A stretch of 26,810 bases of DNA. Source: a virus. Lineage: Duplodnaviria; Heunggongvirae; Uroviricota; Caudoviricetes. Made by a program: the position numbers and the translations under genes. Below, piece by piece: positions 5,580-18,002 of the stretch (positions are counted from its first letter, which is position 1; each line of letters starts with the position of its first letter). The stretch lies in IMG/VR virus record IMGVR_UViG_2740892035_000001, positions 1 through 26,810 of that record. The stretch is one strand, 5' to 3'. The notes beneath the pieces were generated by a model. The model saw only the letters and a program-made list of their open reading frames with translations, had not been told where the DNA came from and searched no databases.

Positions 5580-6433
5580 GCACCATCCTGAAATGGGCGG
5601 GAAATAAAACCGCCATTATGCCAGAACTGAAAAAATACCTTCCTGCTGGCCCGCGACTGGTTGAACCTTTCGCGGGTTCCTGTGCTGTGATGATGGAAAC
5701 GGATTATCCCAGCTATCTGGTTGCGGATATTAATCCTGATTTAATCAACCTCTATAAAAAGGTTGCCGCTGATTGTGAATCGTTTATATCTCGCGCCAGA
5801 GTTTTATTTGAGATCGCAAACAGGGAGGTGGCTTATTACAACATAAGGCAGGAGTTTAACTGCTCAACTGAAATTACTGATTTCATGAAAGCGGTATATT
5901 TCCTGTATCTCAATCGTCACGGTTACCGTGGTTTATGTCGCTATAACAAGAGCGGGCATTTCAACATTCCCTACGGTAATTATAAAAATCCGTATTTCCC
6001 TGAAAAAGAACTTCGCACATTTGCAGAAAAAGCCCAGCGAGCAACGTTTATCTGCGCCAGCTTTGATGAAACGCTGGCGATGTTGAAGGCGGGAGATGTG
6101 GTGTATTGCGATCCGCCATATGACGGTACGTTTTCCGGCTATCACACTGATGGTTTCACTGAAGATGACCAGTATCACCTGGCATCCGTTCTTGAACATC
6201 GGTCATCAGAAGGACATCCGGTCATTGTTTCTAACAGTGACACATCCCTGATCCGTTCGCTGTATCGCAATTTTACTCACCACTATATCAAGGTAAAACG
6301 CAGCATCGGTGTGGCAGCTGGCGAGGGTAAATCAGCAACAGAAATCATTGCTGTTTCCGGGCCGCGCTGCTGGATGGGATTTGATTATTCGCGTGGCGTG
6401 GATAGTTCTGCCGTGTACGGAGTACGTGCATGA
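5576..6433 (+). CDS. N6-adenine DNA methyltransferase, Dam-like (orphan, no adjacent endonuclease), 285 aa
   Basis: Motif [10 protein letters not shown] and catalytic DPPY ([12 protein letters not shown]) present; GGAGG SD before ATG 5576. Confidence 0.85.
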
Positions 6434-8844
6434 GTCATGCCGATATGAACAACTGCTGCGGCTTTAACGAGGCTGCCGCAGCATTCTCATGGAACAGCCC
6501 GAAAAAGGCCATTAACCCTTATCTGGACCCGGCGGAAGTTGCGCCGGTTTCTACGCTTTCAAACCTGATCACTCTGTACGCTGCCGATAACGAGCAGGAA
6601 CAGTTGCGCCGCGAGGCACTGAGTGATCAGGTCTGGGAGCGTTATTTCTTTAATGAATCACGTGATCCTGTCCAGCGCGAAATGGAGCAGGATAAGCTCA
6701 TTAGCCGGGCAAAGCTGGCGCATGAGCAGCAGCGTTTTAATTCAGACATGGTCATTCTGGCGGACGTCAACGCCCAGCCTTCCCATATCAGCAAGCCGCT
6801 GATGCAACGTATTGAATACTTCAGCAGCCTGGGCAGGCCAAAGGCTTATTCCCGCTATTTACGTGAGACGATTAAGCCATGTCTGGAACGACTGGAGCAT
6901 GTACGCGACAGTCAGCTATCTGCATCTTTTCGCTTTATGGCAAGCCATGAAGGGCTGGACGGCCTGCTGATCCTGCCTGAAATGAGTCAGGATCAGGTGA
7001 AACGCCTGTCCACCCTGGTAGCTGCGCATATGAGTATGTGCCTTGATGCAGCTTGTGGTGATTTGTATGCCACCGATGACGTTAAGCCAGAAGAAATCCG
7101 CAAGACGTGGGAAAAGGTGGCAGCGGAAACCCTGCGTCTGGATATCATCCCACCTGCGTTTGAGCAACTCCGTCGGAAAAGAAACCGCCGTAAACCCGTG
7201 CCCTATGAACTCATTCCGGGTTCGCTGGCGCGTATGTTGTGCGCCGACTGGTGGTATCGGAAATTATGGAAGATGCGTTGCGAATGGCGGGAAGAGCAGT
7301 TGCGCGCTGTTTGCCTGGTCAGCAAAAAAGCATCTCCTTATGTCAGCTATGAAGCCGTGATGCATAAACGTGAGCAGCGCCGTAAGTCGCTGGAGTTTTT
7401 CCGTTCTCATGAACTGGTGAACGAAGACGGCGACACGCTGGACATGGAGGATGTGGTAAACGCCAGCAGCAGCAACCCTGCGCATCGCCGCAATGAGATG
7501 ATGGCCTGTGTTAAAGGTCTGGAGCTTATCGCGGAAATGCGCGGTGACTGCGCCGTTTTCTACACTATCACCTGTCCGTCGCGTTTCCATTCCACGCTAA
7601 ATAACGGCAGACCAAACCCGACCTGGACAAACGCGACGGTAAGACAAAGCAGCGATTATCTGGTCGGCATGTTTGCTGCATTTCGTAAGGCGATGCACAA
7701 AGCCGGGTTGCGCTGGTATGGCGTGCGGGTGGCTGAGCCGCATCATGATGGCACAGTTCACTGGCACCTGTTGTGTTTCATGCGCAAAAAAGACCGCCGT
7801 GCCATCACTGCATTACTGCGTAAGTTTGCCATCCGTGAAGACCGCGAGGAGCTGGGCAATAACACTGGGCCGCGCTTTAAGTCTGAGTTGATTAACCCGC
7901 GCAAAGGAACGCCGACAAGCTACATCGCGAAATATATCAGTAAGAACATTGACGGTCGTGGTCTGGCTGGCGAGATCAGCAAGGAAACGGGTAAATCTCT
8001 GCGTGATAACGCTGAATACGTGAATGCCTGGGCGTCTCTGCATCGTGTTCAGCAATTCCGCTTCTTTGGTATTCCGGGGCGTCAGGCTTACCGTGAACTT
8101 CGCTTGCTGGCTGGTCAGGCGGCAAGGCAACAGGGTGACAAAAAAGCAGGTGCGCCGGTACTGGATAACCCGCGTCTTGATGCCATTCTGGCTGCTGCTG
8201 ATGCTGGTTGTTTTGCCACCTACATCATGAAGCAGGGCGGCGTACTGGTTCCCCGTAAATATCACCTCATCAGAACCGCTTATGAAATCAACGAAGAGCC
8301 GACCGCCTATGGCGATCACGGCATTCGTATTTATGGCATCTGGTCACCCATTGCAGAGGGCAAGATCTGCACTCATGCAGTGAAGTGGAAAATGGTTCGT
8401 AAAGCCGTTGACGTTCAGGAGGCGGCAGCCGACCAGGGCGCTTGCGCCCCTTGGACTCGTGGCAATAACTGTCCCCTTGCTGAAAATTTGAACCAACAAG
8501 GGAAAGACAAATCAGCTGATGGGGATACCAGGACGGACATTACCCGCATGGATGACAAGGAGTTGCACGATTACCTGCACAGTATGAGCAAAAAAGAGCG
8601 CCGGGAACTGGCTGCAAGGTTACGCCTGGTGAAACCGAAACGGCGTAAAGACTACAAACAGCGAATTACAGACCATCAGCGACAGCAGCTCGTCTATGAA
8701 CTGAAGTCCAGAGGATTTGATGGCAGCGAGAAAGAGGTCGATTTACTCCTTCGCGGCGGCAGTATTCCGTCAGGAGCAGGCCTGCGTATCTTCTATCGGA
8801 ACCAGCGTTTGCAGGAAGATGATAAGTGGCGAAACCTGTATTAA
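6430..8844 (+). CDS. A: Replication initiation endonuclease, P2 gpA family (rolling-circle initiator), 804 aa
   Basis: Size and position as in P2 A; contains the HWHLL-type histidine motif (TVHWHLLCF) and downstream active-site Tyr context (YIAKYISKN); start overlaps Dam stop. Confidence 0.85.
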
Positions 8845-9196: not shown

Positions 9197-9430
9197 ATGC
9201 GCATTGAAATAATGATCGATAAAGAGCAGAAGATTAGCCAGTCTACCCTGGATGCCCTTGAATCCGAGCTTTACCGCAATCTGCGCCCCCTGTATCCCAA
9301 AACGGTAATTCGTATCCGCAAAGGTAGCTCTAACGGTGTGGAACTGACCGGACTGCAACTGGACGAAGAAAGAAAACAAGTGCTGAAAATTATGCAGAAG
9401 GTGTGGGAAGACGACTGCTGGCTGCATTGA
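9197..9430 (+). CDS. DinI-family protein (Tum72/DinI-like), 77 aa
   Basis: MRIEIMIDKEQ...ESELYRNLRPLYP...KVWEDDCWLH follows DinI family hallmarks (MRIE start, acidic Trp-containing C-terminus); own GAGGTGA SD. Confidence 0.65.
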   Translation: MRIEIMIDKEQKISQSTLDALESELYRNLRPLYPKTVIRIRKGSSNGVELTGLQLDEERKQVLKIMQKVWEDDCWLH

Positions 9431-9566
9431 TAGGTTTCGTTTGTAATGAGTCATGTTTTTTGAGTCCGATAGTAGACAGCTAGAGGGATAAATGATTAAT
9501 AGATAGATTAAACATAGTGATGGGCGTAAAATCGCGCGCATTTTATTGGCAACGGATCTGAACTCA

Positions 9567-10460
9567 ATGGCGGATAAGACTCAATCAGTAAGTATTGTGT
9601 ATCAAGGCAAAGCTCTCGACGATCATAAGATGGATATTCTTTCGTTTGCGAAAAGTTTGCAGGGGCTAGGTGAGGCTATCTACTCTGCAAATGAGATTGT
9701 AAACGGAGGGCGAGACATTGAAGTTAACGTTGACGCTGAATTGATAGCCGGTTCCTTTGGGTTTGATATTGAGGTTGTACAACATCTAGCTAATGCTAAA
9801 GATGTTGTACAAATTTTAGGTTTGTCAGCCATTCCTTTAGCCGTTGGCGGTGCTACAGTTTTAGAGGTTCTCAAGAAGCTTAACGGGCGTAAGATCGACA
9901 TAGTCGAGAAAGCTAACGGTAGTGACAAAGTTAAGCTGAAAGTCGATGGTGAAGAGATTGTTTGCTCTGAAGATGTCGAAAAAATCGTTAATGCCCCAGA
10001 GATTCGTAAGGCTGTTGACGCGTTTGTCAGACAGCCTCTGTTACAAGATGGTATCGACAATTTTGTGGTAAAAAAATCGCGCACCTCTAAGAAAGAAATC
10101 CTCAAAATTCATAAAGATGAGGCAGAAGAGTTTAAGTCGCCAAAAGTTCTCTTTGAAACCAAAGAAGAAGTTGACGAATTTGAAACAACCGTGACATTCG
10201 TTTCGGCGCATACTGACAAAAAAAGTGGCTGGCGTGTTGAGTTTGGCGGTGAAAAGCGCAATGTCAGAATGGAAGATAATGAGTTCATCAAGCTTGTTAC
10301 TGGACCAGACGCCCCCAAAATTTTTGGCGAATTGTTTGCTGTGAAGATGAAGAAAATTGTGAAAGATTCCGGTGGCCAGGTAGACGAAAAGTTATCGATC
10401 ATCAAAGTGGGTCGACACTTTGCCGCCAAAGATAGAAAAATAAAACCTGATGCGGATTAA
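9567..10460 (+). CDS. Accessory cargo protein X, ~297 aa, soluble, no recognisable motif (track start 9546 is a TTG)
   Basis: Long open frame in an AT-rich insert; first gene of a tightly coupled three-gene operon. Confidence 0.6.
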   Translation: MADKTQSVSIVYQGKALDDHKMDILSFAKSLQGLGEAIYSANEIVNGGRDIEVNVDAELIAGSFGFDIEVVQHLANAKDVVQILGLSAIPLAVGGATVLEVLKKLNGRKIDIVEKANGSDKVKLKVDGEEIVCSEDVEKIVNAPEIRKAVDAFVRQPLLQDGIDNFVVKKSRTSKKEILKIHKDEAEEFKSPKVLFETKEEVDEFETTVTFVSAHTDKKSGWRVEFGGEKRNVRMEDNEFIKLVTGPDAPKIFGELFAVKMKKIVKDSGGQVDEKLSIIKVGRHFAAKDRKIKPDAD

Positions 10461-10462
10461 AA

Positions 10463-10726
10463 ATGTCTATAGATATTAGTGTGTTAGGATGGTTGGGGCT
10501 GCTTGTTGCAGCTCCAGCTATATTTATAGGTGCTAGAGTGGCTATACGTAGCCTGCTCGATCGAGTTATTGTCGAAACAAAAGTTTCTATCACTTATACT
10601 GATGCAAACAAAAATGTCTATAAAACAAATATTTATATAAACAATGATGATGAGTTAATAAAGCTCATCGATGATATAGCAGAGAAAAATAAGCGTGAGA
10701 GGAAGGAGTCAGCCTCTCATGCCTGA
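10463..10726 (+). CDS. Accessory small membrane protein Y, 87 aa, one N-terminal TM helix plus charged C-terminal tail
   Basis: ISVLGWLGLLVAAPAIFIGARVAI hydrophobic segment; starts 2 nt after X stop. Confidence 0.55.
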   Translation: MSIDISVLGWLGLLVAAPAIFIGARVAIRSLLDRVIVETKVSITYTDANKNVYKTNIYINNDDELIKLIDDIAEKNKRERKESASHA

Positions 10727-11135
10727 ACAAAAGAAAACAAGCGGTAAAGCAGTCGGTGTTACAGGTGGCGGCGGTGTAGGCCTTTTCCTAATAAAGCTGG
10801 CTAGCTTCATTACAGATCCAACATGGAAAGACCTTTACATTGCTTCAATACCGATGGTGTCAATTCTTTTAAGCGAAGTTTTTACTTTTGCATGGACGAT
10901 TTATGCTGTTGATCCGCAAGAAATCAAACTGAAAAGGCGGTTGAAGGCTCTGAAGAAGCAAGCCGAAGCAGTTTTAAATGCACCATCGTCCCCTGTTTCT
11001 CCAGAAATGCGAGAGAAAGCGCAGGCTCGTTACGACGTGATCTGTGGAATTGAAATGGGAATTTACCCCCTCTCAATTGTAAATACGCTAGATGGAAAAG
11101 TATCCCCCACAGCGCAAACGCCGGACGTTAAATAG
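10719..11135 (+). CDS. Accessory membrane protein Z, 138 aa, two TM helices then soluble C-terminus
   Basis: ATG 10719 with AGGAAGGAG SD; overlaps Y by 8 nt; hydrophobic segments GVGLFLIKLASFI and IASIPMVSILLSEVFTFAWTIYAV. Confidence 0.55.
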   Translation: MPEQKKTSGKAVGVTGGGGVGLFLIKLASFITDPTWKDLYIASIPMVSILLSEVFTFAWTIYAVDPQEIKLKRRLKALKKQAEAVLNAPSSPVSPEMREKAQARYDVICGIEMGIYPLSIVNTLDGKVSPTAQTPDVK

Positions 11136-11200
11136 CAGTTTCTACTTTGCATGACTATGCTGCATGAAATCGCATGATCGTTTGAGGATCGTTTTTGCAA

Positions 11201-11227
11201 AAGCCCGCCAGAACTGGCGGGCTTTTG
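11201..11227 (+). terminator. Rho-independent terminator (GCCCGCC stem, 6-nt loop, TTTT tail) ending the X-Y-Z operon
   Basis: AAAGCCCGCCAGAACTGGCGGGCTTTT read directly. Confidence 0.7.
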
Positions 11228-11271
11228 CGTAGAGCATGCATCTGCATGAAAACCACTACATAAAGCGGGCA

Positions 11272-11290
11272 GGCGTGGCGGGGATACGAG
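11272..11290. other. Candidate cos (cohesive end) core: GGCGTGGCGGGGATACGAG
   Basis: First 13 nt match the G-rich 5' part of the 19-nt P2/186 cohesive end as recalled; lies between the accessory operons on the Q-proximal side. Confidence 0.35.
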
Positions 11291-11377
11291 CGCGCGCAAT
11301 AGGGTTATGTACAATAAATTTTTGACGATCTTCGAGTGTTATTAGCTTGAGGCTGTCAGGGAAAATGAATACAATAA

Positions 11378-11409
11378 GAAGCGCCTAGCAGAATGTTACT
11401 AGGCGCTTC
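11378..11409 (-). terminator. Hairpin (11-bp perfect stem GAAGCGCCTAG / CTAGGCGCTTC, 10-nt loop) downstream of the minus-strand micro-ORF operon
   Basis: Inverted repeat read directly; the minus-strand transcript would have a U-rich tract after it. Confidence 0.5.
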
Positions 11410-11442
11410 GAATATATAACCTGTATGACTTTCTTAACCTAC

Positions 11443-11550
11443 TTATCTTTTTGATTTCTTCTTCGTATCATCGTGATCGAATACTTGGCGGGTAGGCGGC
11501 TTGCTGGGTGGTGGCGGCGGCGGTAAATTAGATTTCTCATTTTTGCTCAT
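11443..11550 (-). CDS. Polyproline micro-ORF 1 (35 aa): MSKNEKSNLPPPPPPSKPPTRQVFDHDDTKKKSKR
   Basis: ATG-initiated; overlaps the stop of micro-ORF 2 by 14 nt; paralogous to micro-ORFs 2 and 3; below the ORF-track size cutoff. Confidence 0.45.
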   Translation of the reverse strand: MSKNEKSNLPPPPPPSKPPTRQVFDHDDTKKKSKR

Positions 11551-11671
11551 CTTTATTTTTCCTATTTTTTGGATCATTGCCATAGCTTTCTCTAACTAAC
11601 CGAGTGATTGGCGGTTTAGGTGGTGGTGGTGGTGGTGCTTCATTTTTTTTAGGATTTTTGTGTTCGGTCAT
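11537..11671 (-). CDS. Polyproline micro-ORF 2 (44 aa): MTEHKNPKKNEAPPPPPPKPPITRLVRESYGNDPKNRKNKDEQK
   Basis: In-frame ATG inside track ORF 11537-11725 (whose first M is a TTG); hexaproline tract; overlaps micro-ORF 3. Confidence 0.45.
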   Translation of the reverse strand: MTEHKNPKKNEAPPPPPPKPPITRLVRESYGNDPKNRKNKDEQK

Positions 11672-11786
11672 TTTTATCGTCCTTTCTGTCTCTTCGTAGT
11701 TGCCTTGCTTTTGAATCATCTTCAATAACGATCCTTCTTGCGGGTGGAGTAGGCCGAGGAGGTGGTGGCGGTAACGGTTTGGTCAT
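11649..11786 (-). CDS. Polyproline micro-ORF 3 (45 aa): MTKPLPPPPPRPTPPARRIVIEDDSKARQLRRDRKDDKNDRTQKS
   Basis: ATG overlaps the TAA stop of the upstream membrane protein gene (TAATG); translated by hand from the reverse complement. Confidence 0.45.
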   Translation of the reverse strand: MTKPLPPPPPRPTPPARRIVIEDDSKARQLRRDRKDDKNDRTQKS

Positions 11787-12436
11787 TAAGTTCTCCTGAC
11801 ATTTTCAATAGGTATTATCAAATAGTTAGGGGCGTTATTTTTCCGCGGTGATGCTGCATCTAAATCAGCTAAAAGAAATATGACTACTGCTGCGATAATT
11901 GGAATCCATGACCAGACAAGATACTTTGTTGACTCAAATAGTTTACTGGAACGTTCCTCATTGATATTACTGTTCCAGCTAGCACACTCTCTGATTTCTT
12001 GATGAATAAACTCCCAAAGTTTATTATCAGGGTTATAACTTTCATCGTATGTAAGTCCATTGTCATCGCAATATTTTTTATATTTCACTTCGTAACTAAT
12101 CAGATCTATGTGATAATCATGCAATGCTTTAGGTGCAGGGCAATACTTAAATTCATTTCCCCATATGACTTGTTTCAACAGAATTGATGATACAAGAACT
12201 AAGCCAAATGAAATTGCGGTACATAAAAATACTAGGCAAGCTAGCCTTGGGTGGGATTCATAAGATGTGTTTTTGGCGAGATAAGTGAGTATAGTTGCGG
12301 TAATGACAACTAATCCGAATTCGGCTTGAGCGCGAGTATGTATCTTGTCTTTATTCTCAATTTCTGAGAAATAAAGTTTTTCGTAAAATTCTAATGCTTT
12401 ATCCTTTTTCATTTTTAGATTCAGTGTGATGTCCAT
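11786..12436 (-). CDS. Accessory integral membrane protein, 216 aa, ~3 TM helices, no recognisable motif
   Basis: Hydrophobic segments FGLVVITATILTYLA, LACLVFLCTAISFGLVLVSSILL and YLVWSWIPIIAAVVIFLLA; AT-rich; between portal gene and cos-like motif. Confidence 0.6.
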   Translation of the reverse strand: MDITLNLKMKKDKALEFYEKLYFSEIENKDKIHTRAQAEFGLVVITATILTYLAKNTSYESHPRLACLVFLCTAISFGLVLVSSILLKQVIWGNEFKYCPAPKALHDYHIDLISYEVKYKKYCDDNGLTYDESYNPDNKLWEFIHQEIRECASWNSNINEERSSKLFESTKYLVWSWIPIIAAVVIFLLADLDAASPRKNNAPNYLIIPIENVRRT

Positions 12437-12469
12437 GTATCAAACATATCACGATAACAAAAAAAGAAA

Positions 12470-12487
12470 AGCCGCAATTCTGCGGCT
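12470..12487 (-). terminator. Rho-independent terminator after the portal gene (AGCCGCA stem, ATTC loop, then U-rich tract on the minus strand)
   Basis: On the minus strand the hairpin is followed by TTTTCTTTTTTTG. Confidence 0.65.
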
Positions 12488-12496
12488 GTTGGGAAG

Positions 12497-13534
12497 CTAA
12501 TCTAGCGATAATTCGTAATTTGTGAACCCTATCGCGTTTTTATCCAGCCATTTATTAAGCTCCTCAAAGCGTCTCTGAAGCGGAATAAGTTCATTACGAA
12601 CGAATACGCGGCTGGCCTTCTCCACATCCCCAAATCCCCCAACATTATTAGGCATAATCCCCATCATTTGCGGTGGCACACGATGCGCCGCCATCATGTC
12701 ATCCCGGCTCACGTTCTTGATGTTTAGAAACTCATCCTTCGCCGCGACTTCTGACAGAGGAATGATCTGAAGCCCATCCTTTTTGCCGTTAGGCGAGTAC
12801 ATAAACAGGTTGCGGAAGTTACCCGGTCCTTTGGCGCTTTTCATCGCATTGCGGAGGTTGTTCACATCCTCCTGGTTCTGCGCGGCATCGGTCATGTACA
12901 TGATGAAGCCTGCATGACTACCGTTAATGTAATACTTCCGGCGGAACAGCGTGGCGGACTCGTTGAGCAAAGCGGATGGGATGGCAGAAAGATAGCCGGG
13001 CAGGCCGTAGATCTCCTGATTAATATCCGGTTCCATCAGATGAAAAATGCTGCCTTTCGTGAACTGATACGGCTGGGTTGTCATACCGTATTGCACAAAC
13101 CAGTAGGTATCCAGGTCTAACCCGCGTCGGGTATATTTTGCCAGAGCAGGCTCAAGGGCGATAACTTCACCGAAGCGGTTCGTGCGTTTCTCCAGATAGG
13201 CGTTACCAAATACCAGATAGTCCTGCACAAAACGTGAAAAAGCCTGCTGGCTGAGCAGCGGGTGAGGGATGTAGGTACTGGTCAGTATGTTGCATTTCAC
13301 CGCAATTGGTGAACTGTGATGCACGGCAGCGCGGAAGGTGCGCGCCAGTCCGTCAAAGCTTACTGGCGGCTCATACCAGCGATCTGTCTGTACGCATTCC
13401 ACATAGTCCAGCAGTTCTCGGCGGTCCAGAACAGGAACGGGATCGCCGAAGCTGAATGCTTCGGCTGTAGTTTGACTTTTAAGCTGGATCTGTTTCGTCG
13501 CCGAAGCGCGGTTCTTCTTACTCTTTCCCATCAA
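12497..13534 (-). CDS. Q: Portal protein (P2 gpQ family), 345 aa
   Basis: Size and position as P2 Q, overlapping the terminase gene by 4 nt in the divergent Q-P operon. Confidence 0.9.
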   Translation of the reverse strand: MMGKSKKNRASATKQIQLKSQTTAEAFSFGDPVPVLDRRELLDYVECVQTDRWYEPPVSFDGLARTFRAAVHHSSPIAVKCNILTSTYIPHPLLSQQAFSRFVQDYLVFGNAYLEKRTNRFGEVIALEPALAKYTRRGLDLDTYWFVQYGMTTQPYQFTKGSIFHLMEPDINQEIYGLPGYLSAIPSALLNESATLFRRKYYINGSHAGFIMYMTDAAQNQEDVNNLRNAMKSAKGPGNFRNLFMYSPNGKKDGLQIIPLSEVAAKDEFLNIKNVSRDDMMAAHRVPPQMMGIMPNNVGGFGDVEKASRVFVRNELIPLQRRFEELNKWLDKNAIGFTNYELSLD

Positions 13535-15297
13535 AAAATCTCCACAATATTGCTGGTATTGGCGGACTCGCCCTGCAGCGGTTCGTTAAACAGTGCGTGC
13601 ATTGTTGCCCAGGCCAGATCGGCGTGACTGGCTTCTTCGCTGCGGCTGGCTTCATAGGTCGGGCGGTTGCCGCTGGCGGTGGTGGCGCGACGGATTGCCA
13701 TGAATGACTGCGCTATGTCGGTGTGTCCGGCGTCAAACTCCAGACGGCGGTGGCTGATAATGTCGTAGGCCTTGAGTACCAGGGCGTTTTTAACATTGGG
13801 GTTGTAGACAAACTCCCGGACGGCAGGAAAGAACGCTTTCACGTTCTCGTAAACCCCGTGGCCGACCCCAGTTGAGTCGATGCCGATATAGGTCACGTTG
13901 TACTGTTCGGTCAGTTTTTTGATGGCGTCAGCCTGGGCGCGGAAGTCCATCCCGCGCCACTGGTGACGCTCAAGAATGCGGAACTTACCGCCCGGCACGG
14001 CTGGCGGTGCCACCACCACGCATCCGGCACTGTCGCCGTTCTGCGTACCTTTTGCCGGGTCATAACCGATCCATACTTCGCGCCAGCCAAACGGGCGAAG
14101 GGCCAGTGCATGAAAGTCGGTCCAGACTTCCCAGCTGTCCACCATGCACGCCTGCAGCTCGCTGAGCGGAAACACGGACGCGAGATCGTCCACAAACTCG
14201 CACATCAGCAGGTTCTGGTATTCGTCCGGGCTGTACTCCATGCGCAACTGGTCAAGGTCGAACAGGTTGCAGCCGCCGCGCACCGCATCTTCCACGGTGA
14301 CTATCTGGCGGTATTGCCCGTCTGCGCACAGCAGGCCGGGGGCCAGATTGCTGTGGGACAGGTCGATGTCCACCTTGTCAGCTTTGTTGCGTCCACGGTT
14401 GAACAGCGCACCGGACCAGAACGGATAAGCACTGTGGGTCAGGCTGGATGGCGTGGAAAAATAGGTTTGTCGCCATTTCTTGTGAATAGCCATCCCGGAA
14501 GCCACTTTGCGCAGCTCCTGGAATTTCGGTATCCAGAAATATTCATCCAGATACAGGTTGCCGTGATAACTCTGGGCCGTGCGGGCATTGGTGCCGAGGA
14601 AGTAAAGCGTGGCCCCATTAGGAAGCACCATCGGATCGCCTTTTAGCTCCACCTCGACTTCTTTGGCGAAGTCGATGATGTATTGTTTAAAGACGTGGGC
14701 CTGAGCCTTACTGGCAGAAAGGAAAATCTGGTTGCGTCCGGTAAGCAGGGCGTCAATCAGGGCTTCACGGGCAAAATAGAAGGTCGCGCCGATCTGGCGT
14801 GACTTCAGCAGGTTGCGGATGCGGTTGGTTTTTCCGGCTTCCCACCAGTGGCGCTGGTAGTTGAACATGGAGGAATGGAAGATTTCTTCCAGCTTCTCAA
14901 TCTGCTCATCGGTGAAAACATTCTTTTCCGGCTGACGGCGTGGGCCTTTGTTGCGGTTGGCGACGTTAGGGTTTAAGTCGGCTTCGTTGCCGCCATTGTT
15001 AAACTTGCCGATCCGCGCGTGGCGCTCCGACTGGCGCGCCAGCAGGTCAATCTCTTTGAAATCTTTCCCTTCTTTGTGCTCCTTCATAATGAGCTGGCAG
15101 TAGCGTGCGGCGGTGGTGAGCTGCATCTGATCCAGCGGCCCATAGTCACCCCACTTGTCGCGTTTTTTCCAGCTGTGAACAGTTGCAACTTTCTCGCCCA
15201 GCATTTCAGCAATGCGGGCGACGCGGTATCCCTGAAAGTACAGCAGCATGGCCTGCCGACGGGGATCGAGATCTGCGGGTGTCAGTGTGGTGTTCAT
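13531..15297 (-). CDS. P: Terminase large (ATPase) subunit (P2 gpP family), 588 aa
   Basis: Size and position as P2 P; divergent from the O-N-M-L operon. Confidence 0.9.
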   Translation of the reverse strand: MNTTLTPADLDPRRQAMLLYFQGYRVARIAEMLGEKVATVHSWKKRDKWGDYGPLDQMQLTTAARYCQLIMKEHKEGKDFKEIDLLARQSERHARIGKFNNGGNEADLNPNVANRNKGPRRQPEKNVFTDEQIEKLEEIFHSSMFNYQRHWWEAGKTNRIRNLLKSRQIGATFYFAREALIDALLTGRNQIFLSASKAQAHVFKQYIIDFAKEVEVELKGDPMVLPNGATLYFLGTNARTAQSYHGNLYLDEYFWIPKFQELRKVASGMAIHKKWRQTYFSTPSSLTHSAYPFWSGALFNRGRNKADKVDIDLSHSNLAPGLLCADGQYRQIVTVEDAVRGGCNLFDLDQLRMEYSPDEYQNLLMCEFVDDLASVFPLSELQACMVDSWEVWTDFHALALRPFGWREVWIGYDPAKGTQNGDSAGCVVVAPPAVPGGKFRILERHQWRGMDFRAQADAIKKLTEQYNVTYIGIDSTGVGHGVYENVKAFFPAVREFVYNPNVKNALVLKAYDIISHRRLEFDAGHTDIAQSFMAIRRATTASGNRPTYEASRSEEASHADLAWATMHALFNEPLQGESANTSNIVEIF

Positions 15298-17351: not shown

Positions 17352-18002
17352 ATGAGCCTGAGTCCCGCACGGCAGCATCGCCTGCGCGTTCAGGCTGAAC
17401 AGGCCGCCCGCGAGGGCGGCAGTGTTCGCCACGCATCGGGCTATGACCTGATGCTGCTGCAACTGGCGGAAGACCGCCGCCGTCTCAAGGGCGTTCAGTC
17501 CACGGTCAAAAAAGCGGAAATCAAGGTGGAGCTGCTGCCGAAGTACGCCGCCTGGGCGGAGGGCGTCCTGGCTGCCGGAGGCGCTCAACAGGATGACGTG
17601 CTGATGTACGTGATGCTGTGGCGCATTGATGCCGGAGATTATGCCGGGGCGCTGGAGATCGGGCGTCATGCCCTGCGTCATGGCTGGGTGATGCCGCTGG
17701 GTAACCGCAACGTGCAGACCGTGCTGGCAGAGGAAATGGCAGATGCAGCGCAGAGCGCAATGCTTGCCGCCACCGACTTTGATGCCGATCTGTTGCTGCA
17801 GACGCTGGAGCTGACAGACGGTCTGGATATGCCGGACCAGTCACGGGCGCGTCTGCATAAAGCGATTGGCGCTGTCCTGAGTGAAAGCAATCCGGCTTCC
17901 GCCCTTAATCATCTCAACCATGCGTTACAGCTCGATCCCCGCTGTGGCGTGAAAAAAGACAAACAGCAGCTGGAGCGCAGACTGCGCAATGACAGCCGCT
18001 GA
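17352..18002 (+). CDS. M: Terminase small (endonuclease) subunit (P2 gpM family), 216 aa
   Basis: Size and position as P2 M. Confidence 0.85.
   Translation: MSLSPARQHRLRVQAEQAAREGGSVRHASGYDLMLLQLAEDRRRLKGVQSTVKKAEIKVELLPKYAAWAEGVLAAGGAQQDDVLMYVMLWRIDAGDYAGALEIGRHALRHGWVMPLGNRNVQTVLAEEMADAAQSAMLAATDFDADLLLQTLELTDGLDMPDQSRARLHKAIGAVLSESNPASALNHLNHALQLDPRCGVKKDKQQLERRLRNDSR

Follow-up and report, generated by a model that had tools for sequence, protein, structure and literature searches.

The window analysed here, a stretch of DNA of 26,810 nucleotides, very probably contains a functional or ancestral cos site at positions 11148-11299, to judge from its sequence, with the ends of the virion chromosome at the nicks predicted below. 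This cos block divides the accessory genes lying between gpA/DinI and Q into two cargo slots. The original prediction had read a G-rich motif of this block as a cos site, and that call is correct; the kind of element is already known and the gpA-gpQ locus in which it lies has already been published. Beyond the map that it provides and the split between the slots, the cos element is ordinary.

By gene order and Pfam matches, the window is a P2-like prophage whose closest relatives are P2-like prophages of E. coli and Klebsiella and the Fels-2 group. It is apparently an intact Fels-2-type (Felsduovirus-like) P2-family element of E. coli. The gene order starts with an integrase (1-1053, - strand), followed by the gpA replication endonuclease (6430-8844, + strand) and a DinI homologue (9197-9430, + strand), after which the accessory genes come. 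On the other side of these lie the portal gene Q (12497-13534, - strand; Pfam Phage_portal) and the large terminase gene P (13531-15297, - strand; Pfam Terminase_5, Terminase_6N and Terminase_6C), the predicted cos-cutting nuclease/ATPase. Scaffold O and capsid N follow P, and then come the small terminase gene M (17352-18002, + strand; Pfam Phage_term_smal, E = 9e-41), the presumed cos-recognition subunit, and the late genes. According to these Pfam matches, the cognate gpM and gpP terminase and the gpQ portal are all encoded by the same element as cos.

The motif GGCGTGGCGGGGA is present, as predicted, at 11272-11284 on the + strand. It is the sole exact copy in the window, against a mean expectation of 0.01 copies in dinucleotide-preserving shuffles. 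When the extended P2-family pattern GGCGWGGCGGGGA-N7-GCGCGC is searched with up to three mismatches, the window contains a single match, at 11272-11297, so that a second cos-like site, for example beside the Q stop, is absent from it. The circular junctions of P2, 186, PSP3, EtG and P4 were rebuilt from their record ends and aligned with the window. The resulting alignment (...AAAGCGGGCA/GGCGTGGCGGGGATACGAG/CGCGCGC) is ungapped and in register with the end junctions of all these phages: the window junction reads ...TGCATGAAAACCACTACATAAAGCGGGCA/GGCGTGGCGGGGATACGAG/CGCGCGC and that of phage 186 reads ...TGCATTAAAACCGACCCATAAAGTGGGCA/GGCGTGGCGGGGAAAGCAT/TGCGCGC. The in-register alignment with the cosL of P2, 186, PSP3 and P4 predicts a 19-nt 5' cohesive end, GGCGTGGCGGGGATACGAG, at 11272-11290 (+ strand), with predicted nicks between 11271 and 11272 on the top strand and between 11290 and 11291 on the bottom strand. 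This 19-mer fits the cohesive-end form of the P2 family, GGCG(A/T)GGCGGGGA......, and is identical to 186 and PSP3 at 15 of its 19 positions, to P2 and P4 at 14, and to SEN8 at all 19. The cohesive end of 186 had been given correctly as GGCGTGGCGGGGAAAGCAT, and the claim that its final six nucleotides differ from those of the window stands for four of them and fails for the other two, which match. An alignment with the P2, 186 and Fels-2 cos regions had been proposed as a check on the original prediction, and it bears the prediction out, as P2 and 186 align without gaps and the 19-mer and a 26-nt core are identical in the Fels-2-type phages. The register shared with the virion-end junctions established by experiment for P2, P4, 186 and PSP3, the discrete island of conservation described below and the identity of the 19-mer with the annotated cos of SEN8 all point to a cos site.

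Salmonella phage SEN8 is a Fels-2 relative whose "putative cos site", identical to GGCGTGGCGGGGATACGAG, was assigned by annotation, without end sequencing (PMC5427200), and its record begins at the aligned cut base. The cos of Stenotrophomonas phage Smp131 is an 18/19 variant of the window 19-mer (PMC3931495). Only the records of SEN8 and EtG start at the aligned cut and, since these starts were set by annotation or by homology to 186, they provide no independent support for the virion ends. None of the records found combines exactly this cos type with experimentally mapped ends.

The last seven bases of the predicted cohesive end read ATACGAG in the window versus AAAGCAT or AAAGCAC in the mapped P2 and 186 ends; because of this divergence, the exact bottom-strand nick is placed by homology and by the flanking heptamer. 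One possibility is that the site is a true cos with a cut geometry unlike that of P2 and 186, either an overhang of another length or shifted nicks, as the divergence of the 3' third of the 19-mer and the four differences from 186 among its final six bases might suggest. Ends of the phiRSA1 type, quoted in PMC5694545, are also documented for other members of the P2 family. Nevertheless, the inverted GCGsGCr heptamers are spaced exactly as in P2, P4 and 186 and there are no indels from -29 to +26, which makes an altered geometry highly unlikely and favors the 19-nt cohesive end.

The whole conserved cos module (11148-11299, + strand) is 152 bp long: 124 bp precede the cut on the gpA side, and the 19-nt cohesive end is followed by another 9 bp. 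It includes, at 11243-11297 (+ strand), the ungapped equivalent of the 55-bp P2/P4 cos core (-29 to +26), a concept that goes back to Ziermann & Calendar 1990, as cited in PMC5694545 and PMC3931495. Over these 55 positions P2 and P4 are identical at 52, and the window shares 42-45 with P2, P4, 186 and PSP3 without indels. The core pattern of the window is TGCAT-AAAACC ... GCGGGC/19-mer/GCGCGC, and the columns that are invariant in a 12-way alignment are retained. Three phased distal boxes, TGCATGA (11148), TGCATGA (11161) and CGCATGA (11171), occupy 11148-11177 (+ strand) and are putative gpM recognition boxes; their distances from the cut are unchanged in P2, P4, 186 and PSP3, as well as in Chitinimonas and other genera. 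The proximal boxes, GCATGCA and TGCATGA followed by AAAACC, lie at 11234-11249 (+ strand), and the TGCAT plus AAA near -29 is invariant in 12 of the 12 divergent cos regions aligned. In total, GCATG occurs five times in 124 bp, where the window-wide frequency predicts 0.12 copies. The heptamer GCGGGCA (11265-11271, + strand) lies directly 5' of the predicted top-strand nick and GCGCGCG (11291-11297, read on the - strand) directly 5' of the predicted bottom-strand nick. This inverted GCGsGCr pair brackets the 19-mer at identical spacing in the window, P2, P4 and 186, and its symmetry accounts for the conservation reaching 7-9 bp beyond the cohesive end on the Q side.

The 12-way alignment serves as a phylogenetic footprint, since it includes four loci from Chitinimonas (Betaproteobacteria) in which the block is otherwise diverged. 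The surviving elements are three distal (T)GCAT boxes at about -124, -111 and -101, a central GCCAG..CTGGCG palindrome at about -65 to -45 and, proximally, TGCAT plus AAA at -29, AAG at -11 and cosN. The five GCATG boxes, the central palindrome and the inverted GCGsGCr heptamers at both nick sites are conserved out to Chitinimonas. The boxes may be recognition elements of the small terminase (gpM) and the heptamers putative nicking contexts of the large terminase; a literature search found no direct demonstration of gpM binding to GCATG boxes or of a role of the heptamers. Two GATC (Dam) sites at 11176 and 11187, 11 bp apart in the direct repeat GATCGTTT..GATCGTTT, are located between the third distal box and the hairpin T1 described below. 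They are conserved across the Fels-2-type cos group and absent in P2, 186, P4 and Chitinimonas.

Across more than 150 related loci, nothing between the two hypervariable regions is conserved except this 152-bp island. Its limits are given by E. coli prophages that share just one side of the locus with the window: homology to those with other cargo ends at -124 (11148) and at +28 (11300). Similarly, in at least 120 IMG/VR contigs with the 26-nt core, conservation of the per-position consensus is confined to about -124 to +26, between unrelated flanks. The core itself was found in at least 120 IMG/VR loci and in 38 reference-genome loci from about 30 species, and some 54 phage records match the cos block at 87-95% identity with unmatched flanks. 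Among the matches listed, all 67 related loci with both anchors have the order gpA/DinI (+), cos, Q (-).

The original prediction also placed the motif between two terminators, and two strong hairpins (z about -6 for both) do flank it. They have the form of a rho-independent terminator, a GC-rich hairpin followed by a T-run, and are predicted terminators. T1 (GCAAAAGCCCGCCAGAACTGGCGGGCTTTTGC; 11197-11228, both strands) is a perfect 14-bp palindromic hairpin with an A-run 5' and a T-run 3', which makes it bidirectional and intrinsic-terminator-like. Its folding energy on either strand is about -28 to -31 kcal/mol (z about -6.2 to -6.7 versus shuffles), and the hairpin is followed by TTTTGC on the + strand and by TTTTGCAAAAA on the - strand. 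T1 lies within cos, with the distal boxes on one side and the proximal boxes on the other, and a strong hairpin (-15 kcal/mol or lower) is present at this position in 131 of the 156 related loci listed, its stem being conserved and its loop variable. The equivalent position in 186, PSP3 and Chitinimonas is occupied by a shorter GCCAG..CTGGCG palindrome without a T-run, which suggests that the palindrome is an ancestral feature that was lengthened here into a bidirectional terminator. T2 (11378-11409, - strand), the terminator of the leftward polyproline cassette, is a hairpin that the conserved block does not include; its folding energy is -24 kcal/mol (z -6.4), and it has a 13-bp stem and a T-rich tail, TTATTGTATT, that is only a weak T-run. 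It is found only in loci with the same left cargo (L014, L015 and L016), is missing from L013 and is part of the cargo, not of cos. A further hairpin at 11253-11268 (- strand) was considered as a terminator and rejected as weak (z about -1). A permissive Rfam scan of 10900-12600 returned only terminator-like matches, all of them sub-threshold, so no known RNA family accounts for the cos block.

The presence of a very strong bidirectional terminator in the middle of the block raises the possibility that the conserved 150 bp are chiefly a terminator, an insulator or some other regulatory element, that the likeness to cos is incidental and that the true cut lies elsewhere, for instance by the Q stop. 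The distance between cos and the Q stop, 1225 bp here versus about 190 bp or less in P2 and 186, could be taken in the same sense. Yet, this cut-to-Q distance varies continuously from 172 to 3553 bp among the 56 listed IMG/VR loci that have the DinI and Q anchors and the same core, and no other cos-like sequence exists in the window at up to three mismatches. Moreover, 186, PSP3 and Chitinimonas lose the T-run and keep the GCAT boxes and cosN, and the EtG and SEN8 records begin at the aligned position, even if those starts were set by annotation or homology. A primarily regulatory element is therefore extremely unlikely, and the block is better read as a cos that contains a terminator.

Another possibility is that the site is a cos by descent and now a disused relic of a defective prophage, which would only mark the old genome ends. 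Many P2-like prophages are cryptic, an identical copy in E. coli 22AR0118 lies in an IS1-truncated prophage and a copy with one mismatch is found in a non-phage context in Pantoea stewartii. Against this, the portal, both terminase subunits, the scaffold and the capsid are all full length in the window, with strong Pfam matches, and no insertion element or frameshift was noticed near cos. Plaque-forming relatives such as SEN8 and Yersinia phage MLG42 also have the same 26-nt core and boxes. A relic is very unlikely in these circumstances, and a cos in working order is favored. The copy in 22AR0118 (locus L016, NZ_CM132257.1) is 100% identical to window positions 9810-12500; its prophage is cut by IS1 inside the 304-aa gene described below and everything from the integrase through gpA is missing. 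This copy shows that a defective remnant can retain this cos together with its cargo.

The motif separates two convergent accessory gene sets, one on the + strand (9546-11135) and one on the - strand (11443-12436), as originally proposed. A three-gene operon sits at the right end, between gpA/DinI and cos, where P2 has old/tin, and a polyproline cassette sits at the left end, in the cos-Q interval, where P2 and 186 hold only a terminator. The further proposal that the two slots are independent also holds. When slot contents were clustered over 67 listed loci, comprising the IMG/VR loci with anchors together with genome and E. coli loci, they formed 29 right classes and 42 left classes in 59 combinations. 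One right class of seven loci combines with seven different left classes, and the left class of the window, with four loci, combines with four different right classes. Individual E. coli strains illustrate the exchange: 13E0767 has the three-gene right cargo of the window with a DUF262 gene at left, strain 639 has its left cargo with an empty right slot, and CFIAFB20180540 has its left cargo with ASCH/IS2 in the right slot. The slots range from empty to about 3.5 kb, as the distance from the end of DinI to the cut is 206-3457 bp in the 56 listed IMG/VR loci with both anchors, of which 25 have both slots filled, 23 only the left, 4 only the right and 4 neither. The slots were probably exchanged by recombination at conserved anchors. 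The published gpA-gpQ hotspot is then really two slots divided by a constant 152-bp module and a gene list that runs across cos mixes two separately acquired cassettes, which matters for catalogues of defence cargo.

The right-end slot, at the tin/old position (9546-11135, + strand), holds genes for proteins of 304, 87 and 146 aa. In PADLOC the 304-aa protein matches a candidate only, PDC-S42 (E = 7.8e-44), and it also matches phrog_3243. The trio corresponds to system #37 of Table S5B in PMC9122126, with 104 occurrences, which was not among the systems assayed there, and its two small proteins were annotated with transmembrane segments by Rousset et al. (PMC9122126). An equation with the validated "hp+hp+hp" system of the same authors was rejected, as the proteins differ (PMC9122126).

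The left-end slot (cosL-Q; 11443-12436, - strand) encodes a 216-aa protein and three overlapping polyproline micro-ORFs, pp1 (11649-11786), pp2 (11537-11671) and pp3 (11443-11550), all on the - strand and each with a Shine-Dalgarno sequence upstream. The micro-ORFs have the form M-x-K/N...P6-8-(K/R)-x-P-x-(P/T)-R...DD...K-rich tail. Translation through stretches of 6-8 prolines should require EF-P. No match to the left cargo was found in defence databases, and the 216-aa protein has no match to a Pfam family; its own family has only 17 protein clusters, whose named members are all from Enterobacterales. The four-gene module also occurs at L059, L066, L178 and L179, and it is kept where the large protein is just 53-56% identical, in Pantoea stewartii and beside Q in a metagenome P2-like phage. 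This conserved polyproline micro-ORF cassette is a more unusual object than the cos beside it. Several other signals were noticed in this interval. A promoter-like TTGAGG-17-TACAAT (11347-11375, + strand) just to the right of cos runs antisense into the cassette, and antisense ORFs with TTG or GTG starts, encoding polyglycine plus hydrophobic residues, are found at 11501-11599 and 11604-11699 (+ strand). The substitutions between homologues tend, on thin data, to fall at third positions when read in the - strand frames (pp3, for example, has 4/5/15), which favors the polyproline reading over the antisense ORFs. At the far side of the slot, a tQ-like terminator (12470-12487, - strand) follows immediately after the Q stop, only about 34 nt from the ATG of the 216-aa gene, and a promoter-like TTCACA-16-TAGATT (12499-12526, - strand) overlaps the Q stop upstream of this terminator.

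The distribution of the cos block was also considered outside typical P2-like phages. P4-like satellites sharing this cos were not found: none of the at least 120 IMG/VR loci had homologues of sid, delta, psu or alpha. The exact 26-nt core of the enterobacterial type is present in Chitinimonas spp. (L141-L144, L147, L161, L164, L172), on up to six contigs of one assembly, where the boxes are kept and the flanks are otherwise diverged. In two of these (L142 and L161) a distant gpA-like gene immediately follows cos. In L172, an AAA_21 ATPase and DUF4062 cargo occupy the left-end side of cos and are followed by a P4-like integrase (51-62% identity); neither Psu nor Sid could be recognised there, and the satellite-like layout is suggestive only. 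A different arrangement is seen in L046 (IMGVR_UViG_2700989567_000009), a mosaic in which a Rac-like early region (RecE/RecT, YdaT, a DnaC/IstB-like protein, a ParB-HTH protein and an integrase) is fused directly to a P2-type cos block, with a DndB-like gene across cos. It would seem that the cos block moves together with the structural module.

The arrangement suggests how the element may work. After induction and replication, the gpM/gpP terminase would recognise about 125 bp on the gpA side, in which the five GCATG boxes are phased by about one helical turn within the three distal and the two proximal boxes around the palindrome. Two nicks, set 19 nt apart, each immediately 3' of the GCGsGCr heptamer on its own strand and positioned by homology, would then produce linear virion DNA with 5' overhangs GGCGTGGCGGGGATACGAG. 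The left end of the virion DNA would carry the polyproline cassette followed by Q and P, and its right end the three-gene PDC-S42-like operon, the recognition boxes and T1. T1 and T2 may keep convergent cargo transcription off the cut site whether the DNA is circular or in the prophage state: T1 would halt rightward early and cargo transcripts 45 nt short of the cut, as well as leftward transcripts crossing cos in either state. The cos block and the conserved gpA/DinI and Q genes could serve as homology anchors for the independent exchange of the slots.

With cos fixed at 11272, the true linear phage map can be drawn, and it becomes apparent which accessory genes occupy the genome ends; the position may also be useful for the design of cosmids or transducing particles with Fels-2-type helper phages. 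Given a cut at this site and the geometry of the linear genome, the cargo would be the first and last DNA to enter the cell. If lambda is a guide, packaging would start with the right end, which has the recognition boxes and the three-gene operon, and the left end would be packaged last and ejected first. Any biological consequence of this order of entry is speculation. It seems improbable that the cargo at both chromosome ends is functional there, and not merely tolerated, with the cos block as an insulator and recombination anchor. If that were so, the polyproline cassette beside cosL would enter the cell first and could act before the genome circularises, and the cos block with its embedded terminator would be a fixed insulator and recombination anchor between slots that evolve separately.

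Among known systems, the closest are the Fels-2-type Peduoviridae (Felsduovirus: Fels-2, SEN8, RE-2010 and SopEPhi, and related Klebsiella and Yersinia phages), in which the 19-mer and the 26-nt core are identical and the 152-bp block is about 87-95% identical, at the same position between DinI/gpA and Q. Their flanking cargo alone differs: the cos-Q interval holds a 565-aa ORF in Fels-2 and two other genes in SEN8. The cos of the window also matches P2, P4, 186 and PSP3, with their mapped 19-nt 5' ends, in architecture and spacing, as they share the three distal and two proximal TGCAT boxes, the palindrome, AAAACC, the G-rich 19-mer and GCGCGC. It differs from them in the 3' third of the 19-mer, ATACGAG versus AAAGCA(C/T), and in the lengthening of the palindrome into a strong terminator. 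In P2 and 186, unlike in the window, no genes intervene between cos and Q, and cos lies at most about 190 bp from the Q stop. The resemblance to the cosQ-cosN-cosB arrangement of lambda is one of organization, with staggered nicks, partial twofold symmetry and an adjoining asymmetric array of small-terminase repeats. Nevertheless, the two sites share no sequence similarity, the overhang measures 19 nt here and 12 nt in lambda, and the recognition array lies on the right end of the mature DNA here and on the left in lambda. The terminase of the P2 family is also reported to prefer circular monomers.

The gpA-gpQ interval beside cos is a known defence hotspot of P2 (Rousset et al. 2022, PMC9122126; NAR 2026, PMC13586616), and the exact gene set of the window appears in Table S5 of the former (WP_000764102, WP_000020716, WP_001115044 and WP_061090207; PMC9122126). 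The fast swapping of the hotspot content has been described already (PMC13586616), and an insertion hotspot between cosL and Q was proposed in the 1990s (Dodd & Egan 1996 and Nakayama 1999, as cited in PMC5694545). Published surveys treat A-Q as a single hotspot, whereas here cos splits it into two slots that assort independently. This split is a refinement of the published picture, not a new kind of element.
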